Assembly (NCBI GenBank): GCA_032250835.1
Contig: JAVVEA010000005.1
Span: 96,001-160,000, forward strand
Source: a bacterium
GTDB taxonomy: Bacteria; SAR324; XYD2-FULL-50-16
Length of the DNA stretch: 64,000 nucleotides
Direction of reading: 5' to 3'
The translations under genes were made by a program, and so were the position numbers. The notes under the pieces are model-generated. The model was not told the origin of the DNA. It worked only from the letters and a program-made list of their open reading frames with translations, and did no database searches. Shown piece after piece: positions 19,100 through 57,309 of this stretch. The first letter of the stretch is position 1. The number at the start of each line of letters is the position of its first letter.

Positions 19100-20662
19100 T
19101 TAAAAGGTTAGGTCCACTTTGAGGCCCCCTTTGGGACTCAGGCTTTGGCTTGATTCGCCTAGCTCTAGAACCCCCCATTGGTAGTCCTGATATTCACCGC
19201 CCACAAACCCGCCTAGCGACAGGTCCAAAGGCAGCGGCCAGCGCAGCCATAAGGCCAAGGTGGTGCTGGTCCCCTTAAACCGCATAGCAGGCTCATTGGC
19301 TGGGGCGTCGGCTTCGCGGGTAAAATCCATGCGGCGGTGGATCAGGCTGATTTCGGGCTCTAAAGGCAGCGTTTCAGAGAGGTCCAAATTGAAGCGGTAA
19401 TGGCGGATTTTGGTCAAATAGTTGGGAGCCGCCGCGATTTCGGCGCGCAGGCGTTCTTTCTCGGCGATTTGTTCGGGGCTATCCCCTTCGCTGATGATGA
19501 TGTTATCCACCTTCCCGTCCACCGACCAGCCAACGTGCAACTCTGCCTTTAAGTCTAAGTCACGGTAGCTCAGCGCCATTTTGTTGATCTCCACTCGGTG
19601 ACGGAAGAAGGCCTCGTCAATATTAACGCCGTACTGCATGGGCATCCACATATATTCTATGGCCCAGGCATCATAGTCAAAACCGCCCATAATATGGTGC
19701 AACTCATTGAGCCTAAAGTCCACCGCCCCCATGTCTTCAGGCTTCCATTTATAGCGTTCCTCGCCCAGTAACAGCCGGTCAAAGTCGTACATGATGCTAA
19801 AGTGCACATAGTCCGCCTTAAGGCGGTAGTAAAACTGGCTCTGGGGCTCTTCATGTAGGCTATAGGGCATCGGGTGGGTACCGGTGACCAAAACCCGCTG
19901 GAACCCAAAGGGCCCTTCGGACAACTGTGACACGAAGCTGGGGATGAAGCTATTGACCCGAGAGCGACTCGCCCCGTAGCGGGTGCCCGAAACAAACCAA
20001 AGGCCGAGACTGTTAAAGTTTTGGTAAACCTGAGGAACAGCGTAGAAAACCTTGTTTTCCCGGTATTCTTCCACCACTTTATAGGCCCCTTGCATCCGGT
20101 CTAATTCCCGGCGGATCAACAGTGGATCGCCCAAGAGTTGCTGCGGATTGATCCGGTTTTCTTTGGGTTGAGCGGCGCAATGGGCAAAGGGATAGGGATG
20201 GGCAAAGCTAGCCTGCTGGCCGCTAGTGGAGCCAAAACTAAGCGGTTTAAGTTCTTCTTGACGGACGATGTCCCAAATTGCGTCGCGCCGGATAATGGTT
20301 TCGCGGCCGTTGAGGCTCAAAAAGCTAATTTCTTGTTCGCTAAAATCTATCGGCCAGCCTTGCACCAATGGCTTTAAAACCCCCTGGTGCCTTGTGCGCA
20401 CCTCCAAGGGGGCTAAAGCCGGGCGGTCAATCTGAGGCAAAAACAACTCACCCATAGGGTAAGAGGCCATGTAGATCACGTCGAAGCGGTCGATCTCTTC
20501 AAACTTCCCCTTTAAATCTAAAAGGGTTAATTTCTCTTCCCCAACATCCAAAATCACCCCAACCGAACGGTTGCAGGCTCCTTTGTATAAGGCGGTGATG
20601 TTGAGCGCTTGGGCGGCCTGGGGGAGGCCTACCGCCCAAAGGAGCACCGCCCCCAGCGCCAT
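19100..20662 (-). CDS. Secreted/outer-membrane hypothetical protein, paralog 2
   Basis: Signal peptide (AAQA); shared motifs with 20667-22265; C-terminal amphipathic strands ending KVDLTF. Confidence 0.75.
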   Translation of the reverse strand: MALGAVLLWAVGLPQAAQALNITALYKGACNRSVGVILDVGEEKLTLLDLKGKFEEIDRFDVIYMASYPMGELFLPQIDRPALAPLEVRTRHQGVLKPLVQGWPIDFSEQEISFLSLNGRETIIRRDAIWDIVRQEELKPLSFGSTSGQQASFAHPYPFAHCAAQPKENRINPQQLLGDPLLIRRELDRMQGAYKVVEEYRENKVFYAVPQVYQNFNSLGLWFVSGTRYGASRSRVNSFIPSFVSQLSEGPFGFQRVLVTGTHPMPYSLHEEPQSQFYYRLKADYVHFSIMYDFDRLLLGEERYKWKPEDMGAVDFRLNELHHIMGGFDYDAWAIEYMWMPMQYGVNIDEAFFRHRVEINKMALSYRDLDLKAELHVGWSVDGKVDNIIISEGDSPEQIAEKERLRAEIAAAPNYLTKIRHYRFNLDLSETLPLEPEISLIHRRMDFTREADAPANEPAMRFKGTSTTLALWLRWPLPLDLSLGGFVGGEYQDYQWGVLELGESSQSLSPKGGLKVDLTF

Positions 20663-20666
20663 GGAT

Positions 20667-22265
20667 TTATAAAATAAATTCAATGGACCCCACCAAGGAA
20701 TACTGGTTTTCCTGGAACCGGCTCGAAGAACCAAAATCCAGTTGGTAGTCGCGCAAGAAGAAATTCAGCTGGCCAGTCAAGACCACATAGCTCCCAAAGC
20801 GTTGTCTGGCATACATCAACGTCTTGATCTGATTTCCTTTAAAACTGCGGTCCTGCTCTTTAAAGACCTCTCGGTAATCTACCTGCTGCAAAATCGCCGC
20901 ACCGCCAAAGGTGATTTCGGGGTCCCAGCGGTAGTCATAATTGCTTCGCAGGTAAAAGACATCAAAACTGAAGCGTTGCAACTGGGCACGCAACTGGGAT
21001 TCTGAATCTAAGGCCAAGCTCGCGCTGATCATCGCGTCGGAGTCGTTTAGGCGCAGCTGTCGCTCATCGGGTTCATCCGCCTCGGCGTGGCTTTTGGCCC
21101 AGATCAGCTTAAAGGAGGATTTAGGGTGCTGGAACATAAACCGGAAGATCGGCGTGGCCTCGGTAGCTAAGACTTCTCGAAAAAGCCCGCCTGCGTTGAG
21201 CCCATAAATGGGATAATATACCCCCGCCGCCAGCGAAAAAGGCCCGTAATCTATCCCCGAAAGGGCTAAATAGTTGAAGCTTTCATTAACCGCCGCTTCT
21301 TTAGCGACGACCTTTTTGTAATAGTCCAGCGCAAAGGCCCGATTGGCGACCATGAACCCACTACCCGCCGCCAGGGCCATCGGGTTGCCCACAAAGCTGG
21401 CGTTGAAGAAATGGGATTTTAGGTCCGTCTGCATCACAAAAACCGGCTCTACTTGGGGCAGCCATTCTACCTGCTTGGTGCCCAAAACCGTCAGGCCTTG
21501 GTGGCTGTAAGGACGACCGGCGGACCATTGGAAGTAAAAGGGGAAAAAGGAGGGGAGTTCCTCATTGCTGTTAGGAACCGTCAGCGGCAGGCCAAACTTG
21601 GTTTCCTCATCAAAAACAAAGGGCCTTGCGTAAAACTGGGTGCGTTCTTGAAAACGCCGCAAATTGGTGAAGCCCTCTTGATAGGCCCCAAAGAACTGGC
21701 TGATGCGGATTTGATCGCTGATCACCCGGGTCGGAAAGAGCGGCTCGCCGGGTCCCGGAGCCTCTTGGTCGTGGCACTGCGAAAGCCCCTGACCCAGACG
21801 GGGCGAAACGGGCTGGGCTTTGGTCGGCGCTAGCTCGGCGGTGAGATGGACGGGCGCTTTAATCCGCACGATTTGGTCGATGCCCACCAAGGAGGTCTTG
21901 CCGTTGGTGTCGTAATAAACCACCAACTCTTCTAAGAACCGGATGGGCCAGCCAGTGAAGGCCGGACCGCCCCGGTGCTTTAGGTGGATTTCGCGTAACT
22001 CCGATTGCAACCGACCGGTCAGGCGGACTTGGGAGATCGGGTTTTCCAGTGCATTGTAGACTAGGATATGGCGTACTTCTTCGCGCCGGATACTGTTGAG
22101 GCGGCCATCTAAGCCCAACAGGTCGATTTGCTGGGCGTCTGTGTAGATGATCAACCCAGCCGGGCCTTCGCACTGGGCGTCCAGCAATCGATAGAGTTCG
22201 ATGGCCTGCGTGGCGGGAACCTGGACCAACAAAAGCGCCAGGAAGGCTAAAATTATCCGGTTCAT
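20667..22265 (-). CDS. Secreted/outer-membrane hypothetical protein, paralog 1
   Basis: Signal peptide (ATQA); shared motifs with 19100-20662; C-terminus VGSIEFIL. Confidence 0.75.
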   Translation of the reverse strand: MNRIILAFLALLLVQVPATQAIELYRLLDAQCEGPAGLIIYTDAQQIDLLGLDGRLNSIRREEVRHILVYNALENPISQVRLTGRLQSELREIHLKHRGGPAFTGWPIRFLEELVVYYDTNGKTSLVGIDQIVRIKAPVHLTAELAPTKAQPVSPRLGQGLSQCHDQEAPGPGEPLFPTRVISDQIRISQFFGAYQEGFTNLRRFQERTQFYARPFVFDEETKFGLPLTVPNSNEELPSFFPFYFQWSAGRPYSHQGLTVLGTKQVEWLPQVEPVFVMQTDLKSHFFNASFVGNPMALAAGSGFMVANRAFALDYYKKVVAKEAAVNESFNYLALSGIDYGPFSLAAGVYYPIYGLNAGGLFREVLATEATPIFRFMFQHPKSSFKLIWAKSHAEADEPDERQLRLNDSDAMISASLALDSESQLRAQLQRFSFDVFYLRSNYDYRWDPEITFGGAAILQQVDYREVFKEQDRSFKGNQIKTLMYARQRFGSYVVLTGQLNFFLRDYQLDFGSSSRFQENQYSLVGSIEFIL

Positions 22266-23569: not shown

Positions 23570-24109
23570 TCAGTTCTCCCGTAGGTACCCAATCAAAGAC
23601 CCAAACCAACGCGTCAGGGTCAGGTAATATTTAACCAAAATCAAGGCCAGGAAATACCAAACCAGCAGACTGTGGGAAATATGCAGTAATTCTAACCCAG
23701 GCCATCCGCCCAGGTGCAGACGGGTTTTAAGGTGCAACAGTAAGCCCAATAGGGCAATCAAGCCGAGGGTAGAAAAAAACATCAGGTCCACCCAATGCCG
23801 GGGGCCTCGGCTTTTTATCTCGCGGATTTGGTCGCGGGCGGCGCTGCCTGCTTGTTTGAGCGCCACCTTCGGCGCGGTACGTCCCTGTATCCGGTCGTAA
23901 ACCAAAGCGACCAATACGGTGATCAACAAGATGCCAAAGGCCCGGTGGAACAATTGCATCTCGATGCGCCCAAAGGACTCTAAGATTTCTAAACGCCGCA
24001 GACCCAAGGCGGTCAGGTAACAAAGCAGGATCGCCGAGGGCAAGCCAAAACGGCGGAACTGGCGGATGCCAAATTCGTAGGCTGAAAAACGCAGCGATTG
24101 GAGATTCAT
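23570..24109 (-). CDS. Ni/Fe-hydrogenase cytochrome b-like membrane subunit with a reduced His set
   Basis: Four hydrophobic segments, third gene after small and large subunit homologs; LFHRAFG (TM2) and HISHSLL..LILVKYY (TM4). Confidence 0.7.
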   Translation of the reverse strand: MNLQSLRFSAYEFGIRQFRRFGLPSAILLCYLTALGLRRLEILESFGRIEMQLFHRAFGILLITVLVALVYDRIQGRTAPKVALKQAGSAARDQIREIKSRGPRHWVDLMFFSTLGLIALLGLLLHLKTRLHLGGWPGLELLHISHSLLVWYFLALILVKYYLTLTRWFGSLIGYLREN

Positions 24110-24115
24110 CGGCTC

Positions 24116-25576
24116 CTATTGGGTAGCGTCCAGGGCCATCGCATAATAGCTATGTAAAATGCGGTTGGCGGTCAGCGGTTTGATCGGGTTGTTCTCACTC
24201 AGTCGGTTCAACTCAGACTCGACCAAGCCGGTCTTGCCGAATTCGTCACGGCTGCTGAGCGTCCAGTTGGCCGGTGCCACGATCCGGTATCCGGTGATGG
24301 CTCCTTCGCCGATAAAGACCTGGTGCATCAAGCTACCCGAAGGCGCTTCGACCAGCCCCGTCCCGGTCCCACGCCCAGAGAAGGCAAGGGGCCGTTGTAG
24401 GTTGAGCTTTTGGCTAAAATCAAAACCCATCAGACTCTTAAAGAGGCTTAACATCAAAAAGCGCCCTTCAAAAGCTTCGGCCAGCAAGCGTGAGGCCGCG
24501 CTATTAGCGCGGTCGGAGCTAAGGCCTAGGTCTTCGATCCAAGCCGAGATGCTGTCGGAAATCTGCACGTTGCCGCCGCCGTAGTGGGTCACCAACATCC
24601 GCGCCAGGGGACCGGTCTGCATCACTTCGATTTCGTACCGGGCGGCTTTGATCCAGGTTTTCGCCTCTTTTTTGTTGAGGTCATAAATCAGATCGTTGGA
24701 CAGGCTCTTATTGTCCGCCGAACGGTAATAAGTGTCCACGAAAGATTCGGTCACCTTAGCGGCATTCAGGGGCTCCAATTTACCGTCCAGGTAAACACCG
24801 GAGGTATAATAAGAGGGGTCATCTTTGGCGTTTTCGATGTCCATGGAACCGAAGCTGATGAGCTGTTGGTTCTCGCCTAGTCCCTGGGCCAACTCCGGGG
24901 TTGCGCCGATCAAGGCCCGCAGATCGCCCGGCCAAGTTACCTCTACTGTTTGTTTGATGCCTTCGAGCAGCCGCAACAACCGCATCACCTGGTCTCGACT
25001 GACTTGCTGGTTAGTCACCCCGCCGGGGATCAAGTTCATCACGATCGGGAACTTTCCGCCTAGAAGCCCCAAACATTGTTGTAGCTTGCCTAAACAGGTC
25101 ACTACCTGGGGCAAATGGCTCAAAATCAGCCGCCCGCTTTCATGGCCTAAATCGCCCGGGGCTTCTTCACGCATCGCTAAAGCCGGAAAAAAGCTAGCCC
25201 GCAGCAGGCCTTGGGCCTTAAAGTGACGCTGGTTCAGATAGTCCGGCAGGACTTCAAAATAGAAATGAGAAATATGGGCGTGTAAAGTGGAGAGCTGCAG
25301 CATGATCTGGCGGATCTTCTGGCCCCCGTAGGTAGGCTTGATCTGGAGAAAGTTTTCCAGCGCTAAGGCAGCCGCCAAACCGTGAGCCACCCCGTTTTTG
25401 GCCGAAAGGGTCTGGGTCAGTTGGACTGCCTCCAAAGGAGACTTGCCAAAGAGCCGCCCTTCCATGTGCAGGGTGCGGCCCGACTGCAATAAAACCCGCC
25501 CTTCTTCGCCGTCGGTCTCCACCGAAACCTTCAACAGGCCTTCAATATTAGGAACCCGTTCGATCAATGATTTCAA
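24116..25576 (-). CDS. [NiFe]-hydrogenase large-subunit homolog lacking all metal-binding cysteines
   Basis: IEG..KV, HISHFY..LPDY, WIKAARY, GPLARM, EAPSG.L.H, APANW..S.RD..G..G..E; L1 and L2 CxxC motifs absent. Confidence 0.9.
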   Translation of the reverse strand: MKSLIERVPNIEGLLKVSVETDGEEGRVLLQSGRTLHMEGRLFGKSPLEAVQLTQTLSAKNGVAHGLAAALALENFLQIKPTYGGQKIRQIMLQLSTLHAHISHFYFEVLPDYLNQRHFKAQGLLRASFFPALAMREEAPGDLGHESGRLILSHLPQVVTCLGKLQQCLGLLGGKFPIVMNLIPGGVTNQQVSRDQVMRLLRLLEGIKQTVEVTWPGDLRALIGATPELAQGLGENQQLISFGSMDIENAKDDPSYYTSGVYLDGKLEPLNAAKVTESFVDTYYRSADNKSLSNDLIYDLNKKEAKTWIKAARYEIEVMQTGPLARMLVTHYGGGNVQISDSISAWIEDLGLSSDRANSAASRLLAEAFEGRFLMLSLFKSLMGFDFSQKLNLQRPLAFSGRGTGTGLVEAPSGSLMHQVFIGEGAITGYRIVAPANWTLSSRDEFGKTGLVESELNRLSENNPIKPLTANRILHSYYAMALDATQ

Positions 25577-26547
25577 GACTCATCCTCCCGGTCGTCGATC
25601 TGGTATTTGCGGGCCGAGCGTTTGGTTGCTCCGTGGATTCCTAAGCCCACCAAGGTTACCCCAAAGGCCCCGTAGGCCAAATCTTCGGCATGACGGACCC
25701 AGCCAGACTGGACCCCGGCAATCCGGTGGCTCAGTTGGCCGAAAAGACCCTGACCATGGTGCGAGGGGTAGTCGGGTTCCGAACAGCCGGTGCAGGGGCT
25801 GCCTACCGAAACACACCATTCATCGCTGCCGTTCCATTGGACGATGGGGCAGTCATTATAGGTGACCCGGCCTTTGCAGCCTAAGAGATAAAGACAACCT
25901 TCGCGTTCGCCGTGGTAGCGTACATAATCGCCCTTTTCAAAGTCGCCCCGGTATTCACAGCGGTCACAGACCAACTGTTCAAAAAACATGCGGGGCCGGC
26001 GGTGTTCGTCTAGTTCAGGTAGGCCATACATCAACAAATGGTTGAGTAAACCCAGCAGATGACGAGATTGGGCCGGTTGGCCAGGGATGCGGATCACCGG
26101 GGCGGGAGCACCCGAAAGAATCTGTCCGTTGAGGTCTAAATACCCGCCGGGCTTTTCGGCCAAATAGCTAGCTTCATTCCCCAAAAGGACCACGACCTTC
26201 GCGCGGGTGATCCAAGCATGTAAGATTTGGTTGACCCGGTCTAAGGCATCGTCGGGGAAAGCGCCTTCCAAAATGAGGATCGGTGGGCTTTGGTCTTCCT
26301 GGGGTTCTTCTCCTTCGGCCTCTAGACGGCGGAAGTAGCGCGCCAAGAAGGAAGGATATTCCTCTAGGCCCCACAGCCCGAGGCTGTGCGTCTCTGCGCT
26401 GTTGCCTTTCAGCCAGACCAAGGGTTCGGCTGCGCCCACTTCTTCCTGGGCCAACAAGTTGCTCAAGTTGGCGCTGAGGAAAGAAAGGCTCAAGGCCCCG
26501 GTGCCCAGCAGGCGGATAAAGTCTCTTCTGTTGTGTTGGTGGCTCAT
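25573..26547 (-). CDS. Tat-exported [NiFe]-hydrogenase small-subunit homolog lacking proximal-cluster ligands
   Basis: NRRDFIR Tat motif; CDRC, GCLYLLGCKG, NDCP, WCVSVGSPCTGCSEP; C-terminal TM with GIH. Confidence 0.92.
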   Translation of the reverse strand: MSHQHNRRDFIRLLGTGALSLSFLSANLSNLLAQEEVGAAEPLVWLKGNSAETHSLGLWGLEEYPSFLARYFRRLEAEGEEPQEDQSPPILILEGAFPDDALDRVNQILHAWITRAKVVVLLGNEASYLAEKPGGYLDLNGQILSGAPAPVIRIPGQPAQSRHLLGLLNHLLMYGLPELDEHRRPRMFFEQLVCDRCEYRGDFEKGDYVRYHGEREGCLYLLGCKGRVTYNDCPIVQWNGSDEWCVSVGSPCTGCSEPDYPSHHGQGLFGQLSHRIAGVQSGWVRHAEDLAYGAFGVTLVGLGIHGATKRSARKYQIDDREDES

Positions 26548-26552
26548 AGAAT

Positions 26553-27488
26553 TTATTGACCGGTTCTTTCCCTTTGATACCGGTACAAAGGCGCTCCGTA
26601 AAGGTCAAAAAACCGCGCCGAGAGCCGCTCGCGATTGGCCTGAAGGTACAAGAAACCCTGGCCGGGGTGTAGGAAAAGCGAGCCGGAACGCCCCTGGGGC
26701 GACTGGGACCCCTTGTAGGGATAACCGCCACCACCGGAGATCAAAAAATCGGTGCCCTCAGGATTGAGCTGAATATGCTCTAAATGATGTTCATGGCCCG
26801 AGAGCAACAAATCCACTTGCTCCCCCAGCCAGACATCCCAAAGCCAACGCAGCATCGCCGGTGCATCGCCATGATCCCCTGAACCATAAAGATTGTGGTG
26901 GGCAAAAACCAAACGCCAAGACTGAGCCGGAGCCAAGTCCAGTTGGTCCTTGAGCCAACCCCAACCGAAGGGGCGGCAGTTGGAGTTGAGTCCATACAAC
27001 TCCACCGGTCCCGCGCTGAGGTGGTATTTAAAGTCCGGCATGCGCCACTTGAGGCTATGTAAGCTGTATTCACGCTGGGCCAGGACGGAGCCTTTGGCGT
27101 CGTGGTTGCCTAAAACCACCAGAAAAGGCAGGTCCAAGTCGGCGTAGACCGACTCAAAATGACTGACCCATTGGGGGTCGGCTAGGCTGGTGACTCCTTT
27201 GGGGTAAAAGTTATCGCCCAAATAGAGGACCAAGTCGCAGCCCAGTTCAGCGCAAACCTTGGCGATTGATTGGGCCACTTGGGCTTGCAACCATTCGCCG
27301 GTACCCGCGTCGCCCAAGACAATCAACCGCAGCTCCGCTTTGCCCTTAAAGGTGTCTAGGGACATCAAAGCCCCCTGATCGGCGCAGCCCTTAGCCTGCC
27401 ATTGGGACCTTAGCTGCAGCAACGCCCATAAACCTAACAACAGCAGCACAGCGGCCAAAGCCCAGCGGAAGCGGCCTTTGGGTAACAT
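26553..27488 (-). CDS. Exported purple-acid-phosphatase-like metallophosphoesterase
   Basis: N-terminal TM/signal; LGDAG, LGDNFY, LGNHD, AHH, SGHEH. Confidence 0.9.
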   Translation of the reverse strand: MLPKGRFRWALAAVLLLLGLWALLQLRSQWQAKGCADQGALMSLDTFKGKAELRLIVLGDAGTGEWLQAQVAQSIAKVCAELGCDLVLYLGDNFYPKGVTSLADPQWVSHFESVYADLDLPFLVVLGNHDAKGSVLAQREYSLHSLKWRMPDFKYHLSAGPVELYGLNSNCRPFGWGWLKDQLDLAPAQSWRLVFAHHNLYGSGDHGDAPAMLRWLWDVWLGEQVDLLLSGHEHHLEHIQLNPEGTDFLISGGGGYPYKGSQSPQGRSGSLFLHPGQGFLYLQANRERLSARFFDLYGAPLYRYQRERTGQ

Positions 27489-28823: not shown

Positions 28824-29900
28824 CTAAGGATTGCTGGGGTCGAACTCAGGAGGCGCTTTCAACTCATTGGGGACCGGGCCTGTTGGGGCGGCCTGCTCGG
28901 CGGGAGCGGCCGGGGGCGCGGTTGCTGGCCCTTGGGCCTTTTCGGCGTTCCGCTCGGCCACAAAATGAGGGTCGAACAGTGAGCGGCGCTCATCTAGGCA
29001 ATCACCTAAGACCCGCTCGATTTCTTCAAACTGCTGGTTGAGGTCCATCTGAACGCGGGCGAAGTCAGTCTCGACCACCGGACCGCTGGCTGAAACGCTC
29101 TCGCTTTTGCGGAAGGTCAAATATTGCCCTTCTTCCAGATAGGCTTCTAATTCCGGCTTGTGTTTGGCCAAAAAGTCGTATTCCACGGGATGCACGGTGA
29201 TGCGCACCTTGCCCAGGCCTTCAAAGTGCTTGAGCGCTGTTTTGATCAGGTTCAAAACAAATTCAGGCCGGGTCTTTAACTCTTCATGGACCACCTTCTT
29301 AGCCATCAACAAAGTCTGTTGGACTATTTCGGTTTCGTGCTGGTGGGCCAGGGTGATGCGGAGATCTTTCAACTCGGCCAACAAGTCCGTCACCTGCACC
29401 GCCAATTCAGCGCTATCCTTACGGGCTAATTCCAGCCCCGCTTCATAGCCTTTGGCGTGGCCCACTTCATAGGCGGCCCGTTCGATTTCCTCTACCGAGG
29501 CCTCGGCCTTTTCCACCATCGCCAGGGCGTCTTTTTCGGCTTCTTCGCGCCGGATCTGGGCATGAGCTAAGGTTTCTTCAGCCTCGGACAAGGCTAAATC
29601 GGCATTGCGCATGATCAGCTTCGCCTGTCGGTCGGCCTCGCTGCGGATGCGCTTGGAGTATTCCTCGACGTTGGTCAGTAAGCTGCCCTCTTCAACAAAG
29701 GCATTGGAGGTAAACTTGCTGGCGTCGCGGGTATCTAGGCGGATCGTGGCCTTGGCGCTTTTGGTGATCAGTGATTCGGGCTCGAAGGCCCGGACCTCTG
29801 GGTCCTCCTCGGGGCCTCCGAAACTCTGCATCACCTCTACCTGCGGGGCGTCGTCCTCGCTGATGTCCTCGAATTGTGGGGGAAGGAACTGGTTTTCCAT
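28824..29900 (-). CDS. fliH: Flagellar assembly protein FliH, extended
   Basis: Lies between fliF and fliI; AYEVGHAKGYEAG (GxxxG), ITVHPVEY, GPVVETDF. Confidence 0.85.
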   Translation of the reverse strand: MENQFLPPQFEDISEDDAPQVEVMQSFGGPEEDPEVRAFEPESLITKSAKATIRLDTRDASKFTSNAFVEEGSLLTNVEEYSKRIRSEADRQAKLIMRNADLALSEAEETLAHAQIRREEAEKDALAMVEKAEASVEEIERAAYEVGHAKGYEAGLELARKDSAELAVQVTDLLAELKDLRITLAHQHETEIVQQTLLMAKKVVHEELKTRPEFVLNLIKTALKHFEGLGKVRITVHPVEYDFLAKHKPELEAYLEEGQYLTFRKSESVSASGPVVETDFARVQMDLNQQFEEIERVLGDCLDERRSLFDPHFVAERNAEKAQGPATAPPAAPAEQAAPTGPVPNELKAPPEFDPSNP

Positions 29901-29921
29901 AGTTGCTTAGAGCCGGTGCTT

Positions 29922-31550
29922 TTAGGGTCCCTTCTTTTCCTTGAGCCAAGTCCGTACCAAAGACGCCGTCTTGAGCGGGTCCTGCTTGGCGATTTCGATG
30001 ATCTTGTCGCGTGGCGGAATCCCCGTTTCCTTTTCGGTCGGGATTTCCAATTCTTCGCCTTCTAGTTCGCCGATGGTAGTGGGCAGACCCATGAGCAGGT
30101 CCAAATCCTCGGGCTTGGCCGAGAGCTTCATCACCATCGGGCGGATCACCATGAAGACCAGGACAATCACAATCAAGCCGACCAAGACGTAGCGGACCAA
30201 GTCGATGATGAACTTGCGGGTCGCTTCGTTTTTCTGCTGCTTGAGGCGTTCCTGCTCGACCAAAGGCTTGGTGAAGCGGATGTTTTGCACCGTAATGGTG
30301 TCGCCCCGTTCGTTGTTAAAGCCCACGGTCTGTTTAGCGATCTGTTCGATCATCTGCAGGTCGGCGGGGCTCCATGACTTATATACAGGGCTACCGACCA
30401 CGTCGCCGTTTTCGTCGCGGACATACTCATACTTACCGTCCAACAAAACCGCCACGCTCATGCGCTTGATCTCGCCGGGGGCCTTTTTCTTGACTACATG
30501 CCGGGTGGAGTTGACGTAGTTGGTGCGCTTGACCCGCTTGTCTAAGTCGCTGACGTTGGCGATCTCGCTGGCACCGGCGCGTACTTCGGGGCTGTTGCTG
30601 GTTACGCCGGGCACGCCTACGGGAATGCTGCGGCTACCGGTGGCCTTTTCGTTGGTCGCTTCTTCACTAACCACCGCGCTTAAGTCGGGGTCCACTAAGT
30701 CTTCGGTGATTTCAGAGATATTAAAGTCCATCTCCACCGAGGCGCGCACCTCTACACGGTCCTTGCCGGTCACCTTTTCCAGCTGGCTTAAAAGCTTTTG
30801 CTCTAAGCGCAGTTCCACCAGCTGCTGGTGGCCAAAATTCTTATTGCGCATCTCTGAGCCGTCCTCGTCACCTACTTTAGAAAGCAGGTTACCGCTGGTA
30901 TCCGAAACGCGTACATCCTCCATAGACAGGTCTGGAACAGCACCGGCCACGAGGTTAACAATGGTGTTGACGCCCTTGCTGTTCAGGCGGTTGTTCGGGG
31001 CCATCTCGACCACTACCGAAGCGGTGGTGCGGCGGTCCTCGTCAATGAACAGGCTTTGTTCCGGGATGGCGACGGAGACCTTGGCGTTCTCGATGATGTC
31101 GATCAGGCTGATCAACCGGGCCAATTCCCCTTCTAAGGCGCGCTTGTACTGGACTTTCTGTTGGAATTCGGTGGCACCGAAGTTGGCTTCGTCGAAGATC
31201 TCAAAGCCCACCAAGCCACCCATCTGGAGGCCCGAAGAAGCAATCTGCAGCCGCACCTTGTCCACATCATCCACTGGCACCAAAATACCCCCACCACCGG
31301 GCTGCAAGACATACTGCACGTTCAGTTCGTCCAGTTTCTGGACGATCTTGGCGGTGTCGCCTTGCTTGAGGCCCGAAACCAAGGGTGCGTAGGTGATTTG
31401 GGAAGAAAAGAAGACGAAGGCGATCAGGCCTAATACAATACCCCCAAGGCTAGAGAAGAGGAATATCTTCTTACCTGTGGTCAGGCTTGCAAAAAAATTT
31501 TGAAACTGGGACTGAAAGTCGTCGACCAGTCCTACAGTCTGTTCGGCCAT
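29922..31550 (-). CDS. fliF: Flagellar M-ring protein FliF
   Basis: VGFEIFD..FGATEF.Q.V.Y.RALEGEL.R.I, SLF, ASVV, LVAGAVP.L, GVPG..SN, two TM helices, C-terminal DP...A..VR.WL. Confidence 0.96.
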   Translation of the reverse strand: MAEQTVGLVDDFQSQFQNFFASLTTGKKIFLFSSLGGIVLGLIAFVFFSSQITYAPLVSGLKQGDTAKIVQKLDELNVQYVLQPGGGGILVPVDDVDKVRLQIASSGLQMGGLVGFEIFDEANFGATEFQQKVQYKRALEGELARLISLIDIIENAKVSVAIPEQSLFIDEDRRTTASVVVEMAPNNRLNSKGVNTIVNLVAGAVPDLSMEDVRVSDTSGNLLSKVGDEDGSEMRNKNFGHQQLVELRLEQKLLSQLEKVTGKDRVEVRASVEMDFNISEITEDLVDPDLSAVVSEEATNEKATGSRSIPVGVPGVTSNSPEVRAGASEIANVSDLDKRVKRTNYVNSTRHVVKKKAPGEIKRMSVAVLLDGKYEYVRDENGDVVGSPVYKSWSPADLQMIEQIAKQTVGFNNERGDTITVQNIRFTKPLVEQERLKQQKNEATRKFIIDLVRYVLVGLIVIVLVFMVIRPMVMKLSAKPEDLDLLMGLPTTIGELEGEELEIPTEKETGIPPRDKIIEIAKQDPLKTASLVRTWLKEKKGP

Positions 31551-34882: not shown

Positions 34883-36142
34883 ATGGATAAAAACTTGGAC
34901 CTTTCCTCCTTGAATTTAGCAGAAAAGCAGTTGCTTTCGCAGGCTTTCGAGACCTTTAACCGAAGCATCGAAAAGCTACGCACCTATCAAGCCAAACTAC
35001 AGGTGCAGGTGCAAACCCTCAACGAGGAGTTGCGCGACAAGAACCAAGAACTGACCAACGTTTTACAATCTTTAAAGTCCGGCCTGGTGGTCACCGACCT
35101 TAAGGGACGGATCTTGACCTTTAACCGCGCCGCTGTCGCCTTGACGGGGATCGAGCGCGAAACGGCTTTGGGCCAAGAGCTCAACGGCCTCCTGAAGTTG
35201 CCTTTGCTACCGGAGCCGATGGACAAAGCGGCCTTCGCCAAGCTCAGCGACGAACCCAAAGAACTACGCTACCGCCGCGCCGATGGCGGTGAAATCTTGT
35301 TGGAAGTGACCACCACGCCGATGGAGTCGGAGGACAAAGAGGCCCAAGGGGTGATCTTAAACCTAAACGACGTTTCTTTGCTTAAGCGTCTGCAAGACGA
35401 GGCGCAGCGCAAAAACCGGCTCACCGCTATGGGCGAGATCGCCATGCAAGTGGCCCACGAGGTCCGCAACCCGCTGGGCAGCATCGAGTTGTTCGTTTCG
35501 ATGATGAAAAAGGACTTCACCGAGGATTCGGGTGAGATGGAATTGCTCAACCACATCACCTCGGCAATCCACAGCATGAACCACATCATCTCCAACCTCT
35601 TAGAATACTCTCGGCCCAAACCGATCCAGTTAGAACCGATGGATTTGGCCCCTTTGGTGGCCGAGTTTGTGGCCTTCAGCCAGCATACGGCCGACCAACA
35701 GGCCGTCGAAATCGACTTTGAAGGACCCGAACCAGACCTCTGGGTTAAGGGCACGCCACAGTTGGTCAAACAAGTGATGCTCAATATCTTTATGAACGCC
35801 TGCCAAGCGATGGACGAAGGCGGGCAATTGAGCATCCGCGCCCTGGCCTACGAAGAAACGGACCCCTTGGTTTTAGAGCGCTTCCAAAAGCAGGTCCTAA
35901 AGGACCGCGAATCCTTGCCGGTAGTGCGGGTTTCTTTTAAAGACACCGGCCGCGGCATGGACGAGGAAACGCTACGCCGCCTCTTCGACCCCTTCTTCAC
36001 CACCCGCGAACAAGGTACCGGCCTGGGCATGTCCATTGTCCACAAAACCATGACCAGCCACGGCGGCACCATTGAGGTTAGTTCCAAGTTAGGCGAAGGA
36101 ACCCAAATCGCCCTGCTCTTCCCGCAGCATCAAGGGCATTGA
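34883..36142 (+). CDS. Cytoplasmic PAS-domain sensor histidine kinase (FlgS/FleS/FlrB-like)
   Basis: Coiled coil, PAS, AHEVRNPLG, N-box NACQA, DTGRG, FDPFFTT, GTGLG; no TM; next to flgB. Confidence 0.88.
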   Translation: MDKNLDLSSLNLAEKQLLSQAFETFNRSIEKLRTYQAKLQVQVQTLNEELRDKNQELTNVLQSLKSGLVVTDLKGRILTFNRAAVALTGIERETALGQELNGLLKLPLLPEPMDKAAFAKLSDEPKELRYRRADGGEILLEVTTTPMESEDKEAQGVILNLNDVSLLKRLQDEAQRKNRLTAMGEIAMQVAHEVRNPLGSIELFVSMMKKDFTEDSGEMELLNHITSAIHSMNHIISNLLEYSRPKPIQLEPMDLAPLVAEFVAFSQHTADQQAVEIDFEGPEPDLWVKGTPQLVKQVMLNIFMNACQAMDEGGQLSIRALAYEETDPLVLERFQKQVLKDRESLPVVRVSFKDTGRGMDEETLRRLFDPFFTTREQGTGLGMSIVHKTMTSHGGTIEVSSKLGEGTQIALLFPQHQGH

Positions 36143-36192
36143 TTCAACGAGCAAGCTAAGGTAAACTCCCCCCAAAAGCTTAAAGGAAGTTT

Positions 36193-37134
36193 ATGAAAGC
36201 TATCTATCTGCGGTGTTTTACCTGCCTCTTATTGCTCTTGGCCCAACGGGCAGAGCTCTTCGCACACGCCCAACCCCAGGGCCTAGTTGAGCCCAATAGA
36301 AAATTCCAAGTGCTTCATTTGGACCGCCAAGAGGCCCAGCAGCTCAAGCAAGAGTTGAGCAGCCAGGGCCATCAAATCCTTGAAGGTCCTCAAGCCCAAG
36401 CGCTTTATGAAAAAAGCCTCTATGCCCAAGCAGGCCAGTGGGACGATGGCTACGCCCCCCAAGATTACCAAGAACCGGCCTACGCGCCTGAACCACAATA
36501 CCAAACAGGCGGGGTGGCTCGGTTAAACTGGTTCTCGTTCAATGTATTTGATGACGATAACTCCGCGGTGCTCTTCATCTTGATTGGACTGGTGGTGGTC
36601 TTTGCTTTTGTGTTTTATGCTGCCTATTATCTGGCGCGCCACGGCCTGTACGGCGACCGAGGCAAGGGCTGGTTTGAGTTCGGCGTTGGTGCTTGGGCCT
36701 TTGGCAACCAATCTGAAATTGGCCATATGTTAGCCACCCGGATCGGTCTGGGCCAGCAAGAGCAGGTTGTGGGATGGGGTCTGGGGGCCGAGGTGGGAAA
36801 TATCAATGCAACCTTGGATTTAGACCCCGAACAGAGCACGGGCGGACAAATCGACCTAGAGGGCAATTACCTAATCGCCGGTCCTCGCTTAACCTTTAAT
36901 ACCCGCAGCGGGTCCCGCTGGTTGATTGAATTAATGGCTGGAACCAGCGAGCACCCCGAAGTAAACCAAGTCGCCAAGGCACTGGTAGGTTATCGTTACC
37001 AGTCACGCCGAGGACCTTATATCGGTTGGAGCGTCGGCAGTTTGATGGTCAGCCTAAACAATCAACTAGGCTACGTCCGCAAACAAAACCCCTACAACGC
37101 CCTTTTTGGCTTGGAAATGGGCCTACATTTTTAA
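36193..37134 (+). CDS. Putative 8-stranded OM beta-barrel protein with internal hydrophobic helix, paralog 1
   Basis: QRAELFA signal-like N-terminus, AVLFILIGLVVVFAFVFYAAYYL helix, amphipathic strands, ends GLHF. Confidence 0.75.
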   Translation: MKAIYLRCFTCLLLLLAQRAELFAHAQPQGLVEPNRKFQVLHLDRQEAQQLKQELSSQGHQILEGPQAQALYEKSLYAQAGQWDDGYAPQDYQEPAYAPEPQYQTGGVARLNWFSFNVFDDDNSAVLFILIGLVVVFAFVFYAAYYLARHGLYGDRGKGWFEFGVGAWAFGNQSEIGHMLATRIGLGQQEQVVGWGLGAEVGNINATLDLDPEQSTGGQIDLEGNYLIAGPRLTFNTRSGSRWLIELMAGTSEHPEVNQVAKALVGYRYQSRRGPYIGWSVGSLMVSLNNQLGYVRKQNPYNALFGLEMGLHF

Positions 37135-37135
37135 G

Positions 37136-38077
37136 ATGCAGCCAAAGCACCGCCTCGTACTCCGCCAGTTGGTTTGGCTGGTCTTGATCTTGGTTTTCCA
37201 GCGTGCCGAGTTGTGGGCGAAGGCCCAGGCCGATGGCAGCCAGCTGGTGGTCTCCAAGGTTCAAACGCTCCAATTAGATACCCAGCAGGCCCGCCAACTG
37301 AGAATGGACCTGGAGGCCCAAGGGGCCCAGGTGATCGAAGGCCCACAGGCCCAGGCGCTTTATGACCGCCAACTATACGCCCAGGCGGGACAATGGGACA
37401 ATGGATACCCCCCAGAACGGGAGCAGAAGCGGGAGGCGCAAGCCAGGTCCAGTTCCGGAAACGGCTTTCCTGCGCCTAACTTGGGGTCCGGCGGAGGTGA
37501 TGGAGCGGCGGTTTTATTTGTCATCATCGGCTTGGTTGTGGTTTTCGCCTTTGTCTTTTATGCGGCCTATTACCTGGGACGCCAAGTTGTATACGGCAAT
37601 CAAAGCCGGGGCTGGGTCGAGCTAGGCCTGGGCGGTTGGGCTTTCGGCAACTCCACCGAGTCCGGAAATATGACGGCCCTACGTTTGGGGTTGGGCCAAG
37701 AGATTCGATCGAATGGCTGGGGACTGGCGGCAGAGATCGGCCAGATCGACGCCACGCTGGATTTAGACCCCGAGGAAAGCACCGGGGGGCAGATCGACCT
37801 AAAGGGGGCCTATGCCATCGTCGGTCCCCGCATCACCTTTGGCCACCGGGGCAACTCCCTCTGGTTGATGGAGCTAATGGCCGGTACGAGCGAACACCAA
37901 GAAGTGGAGGTGGTCGCCAAAGCCCTGATAGGATACCGATTCCAACCGCCAAGGGGCCTCTATTTCGGGTTTAGCCTGGGCAGCCTGATGGTGAGTTTAA
38001 AGAAAGACCTGGGGCTGGTGCGCCAGCAAAACCCCTACAACCTCTTGGGAGGCCTGGAAACGGGCGTCCACTTTTAA
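37136..38077 (+). CDS. Putative OM beta-barrel protein, paralog 2
   Basis: Same architecture; ends GVHF; ATG at 37136. Confidence 0.75.
   Translation: MQPKHRLVLRQLVWLVLILVFQRAELWAKAQADGSQLVVSKVQTLQLDTQQARQLRMDLEAQGAQVIEGPQAQALYDRQLYAQAGQWDNGYPPEREQKREAQARSSSGNGFPAPNLGSGGGDGAAVLFVIIGLVVVFAFVFYAAYYLGRQVVYGNQSRGWVELGLGGWAFGNSTESGNMTALRLGLGQEIRSNGWGLAAEIGQIDATLDLDPEESTGGQIDLKGAYAIVGPRITFGHRGNSLWLMELMAGTSEHQEVEVVAKALIGYRFQPPRGLYFGFSLGSLMVSLKKDLGLVRQQNPYNLLGGLETGVHF
37346..37384 (+). repeat. 39-bp near-identical repeat between paralogs 2 and 3 (second copy at 38290-38328)
   Basis: CAGGCCCAGGCGCTTT(A/T)TGACCGCCAACTATACGCCCAG, one mismatch. Confidence 0.85.
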
Positions 38078-38091
38078 CCTAGGGATACCCT

Positions 38092-39066
38092 ATGTCTCGC
38101 CCCTTTAGACAAATATTCTGGCTGCTCTTGATCTTGGTTTTCCAGCGCGCTGAGTTGTTCGCCAAGTCACAGCATGGAGCACAAACCGAGCCGGGGCCGC
38201 CCCGGCGGGTATTGCATCTGGACGCCTCAGAGGCGGCTAGCCTAAAGGCCGACCTAAGAGCGCAGGGGGTAGAAGTCCTGCCCGCAGCCCAGGCCCAGGC
38301 GCTTTTTGACCGCCAACTATACGCCCAGACCCCTCCGCGCCACAGCGATGACGCCAGCGCGGACCCAGAGCAAGACCGGCTAGAGTCCTACCGCAGCAAT
38401 GAGCGGCCCGCCCCGGCCTATCAGCCCGCCCCCAGGTTCAACTTCAATCTAGGCTTCCATTTCAACGGCCCCATCCGGGGCGGAAACGACGACGCGGTGG
38501 CTCTCTTTTTTGTGGTCGTCGGCTTGGTGGTGGTCTTTGCCTTTGTGGCCTATTCGGTAACCTATCTGTACCGCTATTTGGCCCATGGCTACCGAGGGCA
38601 AGGTTGGTTTGAGTTAGGCGTCGGGGCCTGGGGTTTTGCTAACGCCCAAGAATTTGGCGGGCTGAAGGCCGCAAGGATCGGGATGGGACTCAAAGAACGG
38701 GGGTTCTCGTGGGGCCTAGGAGCCGAGTTGGGCCGGATCGACGCCACCTTGAGTTTAGAACCCAAAGACCAAGCAAAAGACTTGGCCCTTTCGGGGGCCT
38801 ACGCCGCCGCCGGTCCGCGCCTCAACTACGCCACCGACTGGGGCCCCCAATGGACCCTGGAGTTTTTAGCGGGCACCAGCGAACACCCCGAGGTGCACCT
38901 CTTAGCCAAGGCTATGCTGGGCCTACGCTGGCGCTATGGTAGTGGGTTATATTTCGGCCTCAGCACCGGCAGCCTGATGGTCAGTCTCAAGAGCAACCTA
39001 GGCTATGTGCGCCAACAAAACCCCTACAACTGGCTGAGCGGAGCCGAGACAGGCTGGCGGTTTTAG
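38092..39066 (+). CDS. Putative OM beta-barrel protein, paralog 3
   Basis: Same architecture; ends GWRF. Confidence 0.75.
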   Translation: MSRPFRQIFWLLLILVFQRAELFAKSQHGAQTEPGPPRRVLHLDASEAASLKADLRAQGVEVLPAAQAQALFDRQLYAQTPPRHSDDASADPEQDRLESYRSNERPAPAYQPAPRFNFNLGFHFNGPIRGGNDDAVALFFVVVGLVVVFAFVAYSVTYLYRYLAHGYRGQGWFELGVGAWGFANAQEFGGLKAARIGMGLKERGFSWGLGAELGRIDATLSLEPKDQAKDLALSGAYAAAGPRLNYATDWGPQWTLEFLAGTSEHPEVHLLAKAMLGLRWRYGSGLYFGLSTGSLMVSLKSNLGYVRQQNPYNWLSGAETGWRF

Positions 39067-39072
39067 CGGCCT

Positions 39073-39612
39073 TTAGGGCTGGTTTTCGGAGTCTTGGTAG
39101 ACACGAGTGCCGGTGGCGCGGCGTTGGCCTTGATATTTGCCGTCGTAGGGGTTTTTGGCGGCTTGGTCCATTTCGGCCAAGACCAACTGACAGATGCGGC
39201 GGCCTGCCACCAAGCGGATGGGGACGTTGTTGGCGTTAAACAACTCTAAAGTGATTTCGCCTTCAAAGCCCGGATCGACCCAACCGGCATTTTGGATGAA
39301 CAAACCCATGCGCCCAATCGAACTGCGGCCTTCAACGAAGGCCGTCAGGTTGTTGGGCAGGCCGATGTATTCCATGGTAGTCGCCAAGATGAAGCTGTGC
39401 GGCGGCAAGATGATCTCTTCGCGCTCGATGGTCACATATTCAGGCGGCGTTTCTAGGTCGAGGTGGGTGACGTTGTTTTCGCTGATCTTTAAGAAGTGGG
39501 TACCCAAGCGCAAATCCACCGAGGCCGGTTGGATCTGGTGTTCCACTAAAGGGTCGATCTTCAACTCGCCCTTGTCGATCAGTTCTGCAATCTTGTGGTC
39601 AGATAGGATCAT
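39073..39612 (-). CDS. dcd: dCTP deaminase
   Basis: [48 protein letters not shown]. Confidence 0.95.
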
Positions 39613-39735
39613 GAGCCCAATTTCCCTTTACAAAGCACCAAAAAAAGCCAAACCTAACTGGCAAATCCGCAGGGCCGAACGCTTTGCGGTTTGGCCATCC
39701 TGTATGAAATTCCCCCAAAAGGCAAGCTTAGCTCC

Positions 39736-40911
39736 ATGACCCAACCTCTGCGTTTTAATTTGCACCAAACCGACCCCAGCGGCGCGCGCCGGGGTGAGAT
39801 CGTCACCGCCCGCGGAACGGTACAAACGCCCATCTTCATGCCCGTCGGCACCGCTGCGGCGATGAAGGCACTGACCCCCGCCCAGCTTAAAGACTGCGGG
39901 GCTCAGATTGTCTTATCCAACGCCTACCACCTAGAAAACCAACCGGGCAGTGAGCTGATCGAAAAGCTCGGCGGCCTGCATGAGTTCATGAAGTGGGACG
40001 GGCCCATGCTGACCGATTCGGGCGGTTATCAGGTCTTTAGCCTCAAGAAAAAGACGGTCGAAGAAGAAGGGGTGACCTTTGCCTACGCCCTTGAAGGTAA
40101 GCCCGTGCGCCTCAGCCCCGAGATCAGCATGATGATCCAAAACCGGCTGGGTGCGGACATCATCATGGCCTTTGATGAATGTGTCGAATTCCCGACCACC
40201 TATGGCTACGCCAAGGAATCCCTGGAGCGCACCCTACGTTGGGCCAAGCGCAGCAAAGAGGCCCACAACAACCCCGCCCAAGCGCTCTTCGGCATCAGCC
40301 AAGGAGCCCTGTGGGAAGACCTGCGCCAGCGCAGCATGGAAGGCCTGATTGAACTAGACTTTCCGGGTTATGCCATCGGCGGGCTTTCGGTCGGCGAGGG
40401 GCTGGAACACATGAAAAATGCGCTGGACTTCACCACGCCGTTGATGCCCGCAGACAAGCCCCGCTACCTGATGGGTATTGGTCTGCCTGAGGACATCTTA
40501 GAAGCCGTAGAACGCGGCATCGACATGATGGACTGCGTGATCCCCACCAAGTTCGCCCGTAGCGGCGTCTTGTTCACCCACGTAGGCCGCCTCCGGGTGA
40601 CCAACGGTGAATTCCGGCGCGACAAGTTCCCGGTGGACACCAATTGTGAATGTTATTGCTGCCAAAACTTCAGCCGTGCCTACCTGCACCACCTCTTTGC
40701 GGCCAACGAGATCTTAGGGGCGACCTTGACCTCGATCCACAACGTCCATTTTTACATGACCCTTTCTACCAAAATGCAGCAGGCCATCGAGCAAGGGCGC
40801 TTCGGAGCCTTTAAGGCCGACTTCTTAGAGACCTACCAGCGGGCCGAAAAGAAGCAAGCCGCCAAGGGCTCGAGGCCCAAGCCCATCTCGGGCAAGCGGA
40901 AGAAAAAATAA
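39736..40911 (+). CDS. tgt: tRNA-guanine transglycosylase
   Basis: TPIFMPVGT, LTDSGGYQVFSL, DIIMAFDEC, GGLSVGE, PRYLMG, CECYCC...H zinc site. Confidence 0.96.
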   Translation: MTQPLRFNLHQTDPSGARRGEIVTARGTVQTPIFMPVGTAAAMKALTPAQLKDCGAQIVLSNAYHLENQPGSELIEKLGGLHEFMKWDGPMLTDSGGYQVFSLKKKTVEEEGVTFAYALEGKPVRLSPEISMMIQNRLGADIIMAFDECVEFPTTYGYAKESLERTLRWAKRSKEAHNNPAQALFGISQGALWEDLRQRSMEGLIELDFPGYAIGGLSVGEGLEHMKNALDFTTPLMPADKPRYLMGIGLPEDILEAVERGIDMMDCVIPTKFARSGVLFTHVGRLRVTNGEFRRDKFPVDTNCECYCCQNFSRAYLHHLFAANEILGATLTSIHNVHFYMTLSTKMQQAIEQGRFGAFKADFLETYQRAEKKQAAKGSRPKPISGKRKKK

Positions 40912-43025: not shown

Positions 43026-43130
43026 GGCCGCTCGACCCTGGCCTAGTAAGATTCCAGCAAATTAGCTTATCATATCGGCCAGGATCGGATACCCTAGGGG
43101 GACATTTGACCCCAACTAGGAGCTATCCAA

Positions 43131-44430: not shown

Positions 44431-44508
44431 CCCCCGCAAAACAGGCAAGTTCGCCCAAGAATAGGGGAATTTGACGGATACACCTCTTTAAAAAACCATG
44501 GAGAAGCC

Positions 44509-57229: not shown

Positions 57230-57309
57230 TGGATGACTCTTAATCAAGACGACTCTGGTTCGATCGATTCGAGCCGCCCTGGCGACCAACCAACTACTTA
57301 GAACCCGGC

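Follow-up and report, generated by a model that had tools for sequence, protein, structure and literature searches.

We analyzed a 64,000-nucleotide window of a SAR324 genome (positions 96,001 to 160,000 of contig JAVVEA010000005.1, assembly GCA_032250835.1), in which an initial annotation, made by eye from the letters, had singled out a homologue of [NiFe]-hydrogenase large subunits that seemed to have lost the ligands of its nickel-iron site. The gene is the middle member of a tightly packed three-gene unit (hereafter, the triad) that encodes a small subunit, the large subunit and a membrane protein. The minus-strand position, the degenerate small subunit and the degenerate putative cytochrome b, which were absent from the initial annotation, change the picture of the large subunit, and the complex that the three proteins would form is almost certainly not a hydrogenase. 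In reading order, the genes are:

25573 to 26547, minus strand: small-subunit-like gene, 324 amino acids (aa), with a twin-arginine translocation (Tat) signal, a ligand-less N-terminal domain, an iron-sulfur (Fe-S) domain and a C-terminal membrane helix
24116 to 25576, minus strand: large-subunit-like gene without the ligand cysteines, 486 aa, TTG start, TAG stop
23570 to 24109, minus strand: four-helix membrane protein of 179 aa, a putative diverged HyaC-type cytochrome b, with invariant H55 (23945-23947) and H146 (23672-23674)

Translation of the window places the large-subunit reading frame on the minus strand; a plus-strand reading of the same interval, which gives nothing but stops, was ruled out. 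The TTG start, which has GGGAGGA upstream, overlaps the TGA stop of the small-subunit gene. The TAG stop lies at 24116-24118 and the ATG of the membrane-protein gene follows 6 nt later, so that the large subunit has neither a tail nor a selenocysteine reading, and inspection of the reading frame and the stop context found no in-frame TGA in the gene.

The large subunit and its former metal site

The 486-residue protein is a full-length homologue of [NiFe]-hydrogenase large subunits (PF00374, E = 2.1e-49, 169 bits against a cut-off of 25.8). Its best sequence matches among PDB entries are group-1 [NiFe] and [NiFeSe] large subunits (HMMER, E = 6.5e-28 to 1.6e-27) and not NuoD, and it is 20-23% identical to the solved periplasmic group-1 enzymes. 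Structure prediction, as the initial annotation had proposed, recovered the hydrogenase fold: the AlphaFold2 (AF2) model has a mean predicted local distance difference test score (pLDDT) of 88.2 and a predicted template modelling (TM) score of 0.92, and a Foldseek search with it gave a top match at E = 5.3e-30 and TM scores of 0.79-0.87 among the listed matches, which are group-1 [NiFe] and [NiFeSe] enzymes. The motifs regarded as defining the fold, HFYFEVLPDY, WIKAARY and GPLARM, all stand in the translation. More specific models fit poorly; the NCBIfam NiFeSe model gives 194 bits against a cut-off of 600, all other NCBIfam scores likewise fall far under their cut-offs, and the ESM Atlas returned generic hydrogenase clusters only.

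Three stretches of the protein correspond to the former active site:

25382 to 25417, minus strand: remnant of the L1 motif, TQTLSAKNGVAH, from residue 54 on; the first and second ligand cysteines are replaced by S58 and N61 and the L1 arginine by T56, and His65 is kept
24335 to 24349, minus strand: EAPSG, from residue 410 on; the catalytic canopy arginine is replaced by Ser413, and Pro412 is kept
24119 to 24154, minus strand: remnant of the L2 motif and the C-terminus, HSYYAMALDATQ, residues 475-486; the third and fourth ligand cysteines are replaced by M480 and D483

Alignments bear out the claim that all four Ni-Fe cysteines are absent. HMMER sets 'ltqtlsakngvah' and 'veapsg' opposite 'ftqrtcgvctyth' and 'vnaprg' of the large subunit of Desulfovibrio vulgaris Miyazaki F (4u9h_L/1ubh_L, E = 6.5e-28), and MAFFT, run with canonical relatives, sets HSYYAMALDATQ opposite RSFDPCxxCxxH, its YAMALDATQ part facing DPCxxCxxH, which leaves S58, N61, M480 and D483 at the ligand positions. 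The loss of the maturation tail also holds, with the protein ending in a TAG stop at the position of the mature C-terminal histidine, where some canonical relatives likewise end. Two further substitutions, of RIEGH by NIEGL at residue 10 and of VPTTWN by APANWT at residue 434, are both found in the translation.

These changes are not peculiar to one assembly. A word-indexed search of 5.8 billion proteins returned 29 close relatives at 43-77% identity, named Lambdaproteobacteria or SAR324 proteins in some sources, and an exhaustive HMMER search of 1.84 billion representatives returned 741 matches at E <= 0.001 and 35 at E <= 1e-30. Alignment of 154 retrieved proteins of at least 380 aa defined two cysteine-less families. 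Family A (31 proteins used) follows the pattern TQxLSxKxGVAH ... EAPxG ... HSYxxxxLDGTQ; family B, whose 14 proteins share 30-38% identity with the window protein, follows TQQISxDSGVSH ... EAPAG ... HSFAFSxxDAVH. Cysteine is absent from all four ligand positions in every one of these 31 and 14 proteins, a non-conserved cysteine one residue past the second position occurring in 3 of the 31, and all 27 full-length relatives aligned at 43-77% identity lack both the four cysteines and the canopy arginine. Since the substitutions recur in all aligned relatives, the cysteine-less large subunit is a real conserved family and neither chance nor an assembly error.

We compared both families with 81 canonical sequences, which were picked by their two CxxC motifs and therefore have the cysteines in 100% of rows by construction, the other columns being informative. 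The canopy arginine is present in 90% of the canonical sequences and in 0 of the 45 family members (0/31 in family A, 0/14 in family B). Among positions that at least 80% of the canonical sequences share, those essentially lost in both families are P7, A28, R56, C58, G59, C61, R413, D478, P479, C480 and C483; those kept in both include E12 (the Glu of RxEGH), E39, H65 (the His after L1), D112, P412, H418 and R363, together with nearly all of the glycines and prolines that define the fold.

The initial annotation had suggested a search for newly conserved pocket residues across orthologs. An acidic residue at the fourth cysteine position emerged from it (Asp in 87% of family A and Glu in the others; Asp or Glu in 100% of family B), and no other replacement is common to the two families: the other three ligand positions vary between and within them (S/G, N/S, M/Q/S), and the residue between the former L1 cysteines is mostly Lys in family A and Asp in family B. 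By itself the acidic residue would be thin support for a new site. No set of Cys, selenocysteine or His residues takes the place of the thiolates, and on these alignments the lost and gained residues rebuild no nickel site. The pattern appears compatible with a structural plug formed by an Asp-His pair, with Lys60 helping in family A, and the alternation of Lys and Asp at one position could alternatively signal a bound cation.

The small subunit and the membrane protein

The small-subunit-like protein matches PF14720 (E = 2.4e-23) and, under the model's cut-off, TIGR00391 (E = 1.2e-33); solved small subunits in the PDB match its C-terminal half only (residues ~147-260, E = 8.5e-26). Its main features are:

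26524 to 26529, minus strand: codons of the twin arginines R7 and R8 of RRDFIRLLG, invariant in 24/24 aligned rows
25759 to 25983, minus strand: Fe-S domain with eight cysteines (C194, C197, C218, C224, C233, C245, C252, C255), read as ligands of a distal and a medial [4Fe-4S] cluster
25627 to 25695, minus strand: C-terminal hydrophobic helix, a predicted membrane anchor, which aligns with the C-terminal region of HoxK/HyaA (query 149-315)

The Tat signal is not recovered by the hidden Markov model TIGR01409, which scores under its cut-off (E = 0.39), and Gly293 and Gly301 are conserved in the C-terminal helix. Ligands were assigned in the Fe-S domain by alignment to the small subunit of D. 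fructosovorans, and 17 family-A and 6 family-B rows were compared with 53 canonical small subunits. All four ligands of the proximal cluster (Cys 51, 54, 125 and 157) are replaced, and with them goes the three-cluster small subunit of a group-1 membrane-bound uptake hydrogenase. The eight cysteines of the Fe-S domain are invariant in 17/17 family-A and 6/6 family-B rows, seven of them being canonical medial or distal cysteines; at position 194, a ligand of the distal cluster, the 53/53 canonical His faces Cys in 23/23 triad rows. These eight cysteines would suffice for two [4Fe-4S] clusters, medial and distal.

Other residues occupy the vacated proximal pocket. In family A, His54 and Glu125 replace two proximal cysteines; position 125 is Glu or Asp, and His54 is not conserved in family B. 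A canonical Trp is replaced by His163 in 88% of family-A and 100% of family-B rows (residues 54, 125 and 163 lie at about 26059-26388 of the window). His54, Glu125 and His163 could form a new site in this pocket.

The AF2 model of the 179-aa membrane protein (pLDDT 85.7) has four predicted helices, and its top three Foldseek matches are chains of Escherichia coli HyaC (best E = 0.053, TM score 0.60). An alignment by hhalign to the HyaC of the same genome (E = 5.5e-4, probability 30%) pairs H55 with the histidine of transmembrane helix 2 and H146 with the first histidine of transmembrane helix 4; the histidine of helix 1 and the second histidine of helix 4 have no counterpart, a conserved Lys/Arg standing at the latter. 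Two of the four heme-ligating histidine positions of HyaC are therefore kept, and across 23 rows only H55, G59, G122 and H146 are invariant. The ESM Atlas placed the protein near cytochrome b561/PF01292 clusters (0.85-0.87), at the level of a lead only. From the positive-inside rule, the hhalign pairing and the heme ligation of FdnI, we infer that the retained pair would hold the heme on the periplasmic side. The cytoplasmic loop is the least conserved and least confident stretch of the protein.

We also predicted a complex of small-subunit residues 36-324, the membrane protein, two 4Fe-4S clusters and a heme. The score was 0.48, against 0.00 for the best of three controls, and the runs agreed in at least 61% of contacts with a partner pLDDT of at least 73. 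The mark that this prediction passes is reached by 58/80 solved complexes and 2/110 mismatched pairs, and at scores of 0.60 or under it is reached by only 7/80 solved complexes and by both of those mismatches. The prediction lends weak support to the pairing of the small subunit with the membrane protein, and likeness to the solved HyaA-HyaC complex (4GD3) may alone explain the pass.

The emptied Ni-Fe cavity or the proximal pocket might bind another metal or a small molecule, in which case the triad would be an oxidoreductase or a binding protein fed by the medial cluster; we regard this as unlikely. It would account for the Asp or Glu at position 483 in both families (87% Asp in family A), for the retention of E12, H65, D112 and H418 around the old site, for the His163 that replaces Trp in 88-100% of small-subunit rows and the E/D125 that replaces a proximal Cys, and for the tight constraint on the large subunit described below (dN/dS 0.05-0.07); the Asp (family B) or Lys (family A) in the middle of L1 would fit a cation site swapped for a lysine. 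The difficulty is that only that one replacement residue is common to the families while the residues at the first three cysteine positions vary, that the proximal cluster, the only link expected between cavity and chain, no longer exists, and that H54 of the small subunit is unconserved in family B. A shade less probable still would be that a [NiFe]-hydrogenase was turned for a second time, independently, into a respiratory or sensory machine that does not use hydrogen, this time from a Tat-exported group-1 enzyme and with a new ligand or metal site; Asp/Glu483 with His65, Glu12 and Asp112, or else the vacated proximal-cluster pocket, would be the candidate site in that equally doubtful case.

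Distribution, selection and nickel-iron maturation

The large-subunit gene was matched at E <= 1e-60 in 37 of the 88 genomes of the phylum (SAR324/Lambdaproteobacteria), with internal stops in 0/37. Its distribution follows genome families: 16/18 genomes of family f1 plus the window genome, 1/1 of f5 and 19/19 of f6 carry it, as against 0/45 of f7 and 0/4 of f2-f4, and f6 carries family B (five loci inspected). The large-subunit and membrane-protein genes are adjacent in 17/17 genome loci, the small-subunit gene accompanies them in 16/17, the seventeenth locus being truncated at its edge, and family-B loci carry the identical three-gene set. Among sequencing runs, no RNA run was listed for the 2978-base stretch of the operon and one DNA run was, with a 0.13 share of words, a result that has no bearing on expression.

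Families A and B form one clade, with Shimodaira-Hasegawa-like (SH-like) support of 100 in a FastTree phylogeny of 133 rows and an SH-like approximate likelihood ratio test (SH-aLRT) value of 99 in an IQ-TREE mixture-model tree of 58 rows. The weak neighbours of this clade (support 82-83) are the degenerate large-subunit-like proteins P0075, P0077 and P0116, joined by P0079 in the 58-row tree. Some or all of the ligand cysteines are also gone from a wider set of large-subunit-like proteins (P0067, P0069, P0072, P0075, P0077, P0079, P0103, P0116 and P0185), several of which end before L2. When the tree is rooted on the group-3-like gene of the window genome, the clade falls in the part that holds the genome's group-1d-like gene and not its group-2-like gene, on deep branches with support of 80-88 and in a tree built without a labelled reference set. 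The initial annotation had derived the protein from a Tat-type group-1 enzyme; the twin-arginine motif, the C-terminal membrane helix and the partner with a probable cytochrome b fold agree with that, and the derivation from group 1 rests mainly on this architecture.

Purifying selection on each of the three genes is strong. In the two least diverged pairs, the large subunit gave ratios of nonsynonymous to synonymous substitution rates (dN/dS) of 0.050 and 0.073, the membrane protein 0.087 and 0.035, and the small subunit 0.053; another three or four pairs per gene, which were more diverged, gave 0.07-0.18. Values of dS lay at 0.9-2.2 and were near saturation in all usable pairs, and most other pairs were saturated and excluded. 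The loss of every catalytic element at both ends of the electron-transfer wire might bring to mind a decaying relic or pseudogene without present function, but this is very improbable given intact frames in 37/37 genomes, dN/dS of 0.035-0.087 across the three genes, 43 columns that are invariant in the 31 family-A proteins at identities down to 38%, and retention of the triad in G005 and G006, which are closed, single-contig genomes of 1.6-1.7 Mb.

Of the 37 genomes with the triad, 19 lack HypD; eight of these 19 (G070, G082, G085, G002, G009, G010, G012 and G015) are at least 90% complete. G002, G005, G006 and G012 contain no PF00374 locus other than the cysteine-less gene. The protein thus persists in genomes that cannot make the Ni-Fe cofactor. 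The window genome itself holds a canonical uptake-hydrogenase operon on another contig (C43, about 35000-45200; locus L001 = C43:34734-39287), with a Tat-type small subunit that has a six-cysteine proximal motif with extra Cys (ECTCCSES, CCIGG). After it come a large subunit of 572 aa, in which both CxxC motifs and the tail are present, HyaC (229 aa), an endopeptidase and HypD. Intact motifs are also found in two other large-subunit genes of this genome (C43:53586-54911 and C17:24454-25584).

That the triad could still be a hydrogenase, with unconventional ligands or a different metal centre, is extremely improbable. Its fold, the proton-path glutamate E12 and His65 are all retained, but Ser, Asn, Met and Asp replace the thiolates, the canopy arginine is gone, 19/37 hosts lack HypD, and electrons could not leave the active site because the proximal cluster is gone.

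The proposed module, its surroundings and its relatives

We favour, with modest confidence, the reading that the triad descends from a membrane-bound [NiFe]-hydrogenase of the Tat-exported type and is conserved and functional without nickel, an Fe-S/heme-b module being paired with a catalytically dead large subunit. It is best read as a periplasmic module independent of the Hyp proteins, of whose wire both ends are gone and the middle is preserved. Synthesis would take place in the cytoplasm with no help from the Hyp machinery, and the Tat system would carry the complex, with the large subunit riding on the signal of the small subunit, to the periplasmic face of the inner membrane. There the eight cysteines of the small subunit would bind two [4Fe-4S] clusters, and H55 and H146, as a periplasmic-side pair, would bind one heme b. 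Such a complex would not activate H2; its surviving wire would consist of the medial [4Fe-4S] cluster, the distal [4Fe-4S] cluster and the one heme b. With the proximal cluster lost, the large subunit would no longer connect to what is left of the Fe-S chain, and it may serve as a dead yet sequence-constrained scaffold, by analogy with cofactor-less QrcB in Qrc and ActB in alternative complex III, a buried Asp483 next to the retained His65 probably acting as a structural plug of the old metal site. Most likely, the whole would be a small electron-transfer module on the periplasmic face, joined to the membrane or quinone pool and to a periplasmic partner.

Several points weigh against this reading. 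The main one is that, with both ends of the wire gone, no donor or acceptor can be named, so the electron-transfer role is a guess by analogy; the clusters and the heme, in turn, are deduced from conserved cysteines and histidines. The membrane protein is weakly matched at sequence level: it has no Pfam match, PF01292 included, and TIGR02125 reaches only E = 0.11. Its structural comparison by VIA gave Z scores of 13.2 with CybB, 13.1 and 12.8 with HyaC and 9.7 with FdnI, the next row scoring 9.1, which is moderate evidence because helical bundles readily reach Z ~13. The periplasmic placement of its histidine pair leans on the 30% hhalign pairing, on our own reading of the topology and on the heme ligation of FdnI. 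Constraint on the large subunit equals that on the small one (dN/dS about 0.05-0.07), more than a pure spacer might need and enough to leave room for a binding or catalytic role; dS is near saturation in the usable pairs; and the invariant, buried D/E483 could form a new site with the retained E12, H65 and D112. Finally, the neighbours of the triad, which include coaE, VanY, a metallophosphoesterase and flagellar genes, give no functional hint.

Since two clusters could report a redox state and a membrane protein could relay it, a periplasmic sensor of redox, iron or oxygen might also be imagined, and Fe-S ligands kept without a catalytic site, with all-cysteine distal ligation in 23/23 rows, would suit one. 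We consider it improbable: neither in the window nor at the related loci is a kinase, cyclase or transcription-factor gene conserved beside the triad, the cytoplasmic loop through which a signal might pass is the least conserved and least confident part of the membrane protein, and an S24/LexA-like gene adjoins the triad in only part of family B. No multiheme cytochrome gene adjoins the triad in the window or at the related loci either.

In the window the triad comes after fliF-fliH-fliI, with gaps of 5-6 nt or less, and family-B triads stand beside fliR-flhB-flhA or flhF/flhG-like genes, an arrangement that might suggest an enzyme recruited as an accessory structure for the flagellar motor or export gate. 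This is scarcely credible, because coaE and VanY share the neighbourhood and common ancestry of gene order explains the proximity. We rejected the idea on distribution: FlhA is found in 41/45 triad-free f7 genomes and is absent from the closed, triad-bearing G005 and G006.

Other features of the surroundings are the following.

26553 to 27488 and 7530 to 8369, minus strand: calcineurin-like metallophosphoesterases, of which the first carries a membrane anchor at its N-terminus and lies directly upstream of the triad in the window and at 7/17 related loci
28824 to 31550, minus strand: FliF (542 aa), then FliH (358 aa), then FliI, with no fliG between; the acidic N-terminal ~165 aa of FliH have no Pfam match
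55201 to 59412: fliR, flhB and flhA, ~25 kb off
19100 to 20734 and 20667 to 22265, minus strand: neighbouring proteins of ~540 aa with signal-peptide-like N-termini and no Pfam match, weakly alike and both kept downstream of VanY in L009
33472 to 34677, minus strand: fusion of a glutaredoxin domain with a pyridine nucleotide-disulphide oxidoreductase of thioredoxin-reductase-like type
7100-8947 in L029, 7062-8978 in L030 and 7508-9403 in L034: an acyl-CoA dehydrogenase of ~615-640 aa (four ACAD Pfam domains) directly after the triad in part of family B, seen by eye in L031 and L033 also

The S24/LexA-like gene precedes the triad in L034 and L115, and the arrangement with the acyl-CoA dehydrogenase or S24 gene is missing in G002, G005 and G006.

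The textbook case of metal-free reuse of a hydrogenase is complex I, the module of which descended from group-4 enzymes. There the cluster that adjoins the former Ni-Fe site (N2) is retained, and the site itself became a quinone pocket. The initial annotation had drawn a parallel to NuoD, which holds in that the fold is kept and the metal site lost and fails in that all four ligands of the proximal cluster are lost too. Like NuoD/NuoB, Ehr and Mbx, the triad would keep a [NiFe] large-subunit fold without its metal site in a respiratory complex; unlike those group-4-derived modules, which face the cytoplasm, have no Tat signal and keep N2, it carries a Tat signal and has lost the adjacent cluster.

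The enzymes of D. vulgaris, Miyazaki F (4u9h/1ubh) and Hildenborough HysAB (3ze7), are the best match in sequence and fold (TM 0.79-0.86) and share the Tat-type small subunit, and the [NiFeSe] enzymes, like the triad, have four cysteines at the medial cluster. The triad differs from the D. vulgaris group-1 enzymes in lacking the Ni-Fe ligands, the canopy arginine and the proximal cluster, and in the exchange of the distal His for Cys. In composition it resembles E. coli HyaABC (4GD3) and the genome's own group-1d-like operon on C43, with a Tat-type small subunit, a large subunit and a four-helix membrane protein, in the triad a putative cytochrome b; unlike the C43 operon, it has no complete set of ligands, six-cysteine proximal motif, tail, endopeptidase or hyp genes, and it keeps 2/4 heme histidines.

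The closest functional analogy may be with Qrc and alternative complex III. QrcB and ActB are cofactor-less homologues of the catalytic subunits of the molybdenum/tungsten-bis(pyranopterin guanosine dinucleotide) (Mo/W-bisPGD) superfamily, and, as would hold for the triad, a cofactor-free catalytic homologue stands beside Fe-S and membrane subunits on the periplasmic side (PMC6303296). Both differ from it in their superfamily (Mo/W-bisPGD), in a heme-less membrane subunit of NrfD type and in a known donor, cytochrome c3 via QrcA. HoxV/HupK are large-subunit-like proteins without enzyme activity that act with HypC/HypD and whose genes lie among those for hydrogenase accessory proteins (PMC12134894). 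They are cytoplasmic carriers of the Fe(CN)2CO that the Hyp proteins make, whereas the triad has a Tat-type small subunit and a membrane partner of its own and occurs in genomes free of HypD; set among housekeeping and flagellar genes, it is distinguished from HoxV/HupK by context and description. For SAR324 from an aquifer, the excerpted account mentions only group 1d hydrogenases (PMC9031357). A search of the full-text literature, which does not extend to supplementary tables, found no description of a cysteine-less Tat-type or group-1-type hydrogenase homologue. As a metal-free descendant of [NiFe] hydrogenases, the triad belongs to a known phenomenon, of which a group-1-type instance is undescribed in the literature found.

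The finding bears on how hydrogen metabolism is read from genomes. Genes of the triad pass the Pfam cut-offs of PF00374 and PF14720 by a wide margin, and some sources label the protein 'Ni,Fe-hydrogenase I large subunit'. With 19/37 carriers lacking HypD, counting these genes as hydrogenases would therefore overstate hydrogen metabolism in SAR324/Lambdaproteobacteria. Metal loss in a periplasmic, group-1-type enzyme would parallel the history of complex I with a different outcome, the ends of the wire having been trimmed and the middle kept. The triad would then be a natural experiment in which the large-subunit fold operates with the medial and distal clusters and a single heme but without H2 chemistry and, were a new ligand or metal site to prove true, it would represent a chemistry undescribed for the hydrogenase large-subunit fold.

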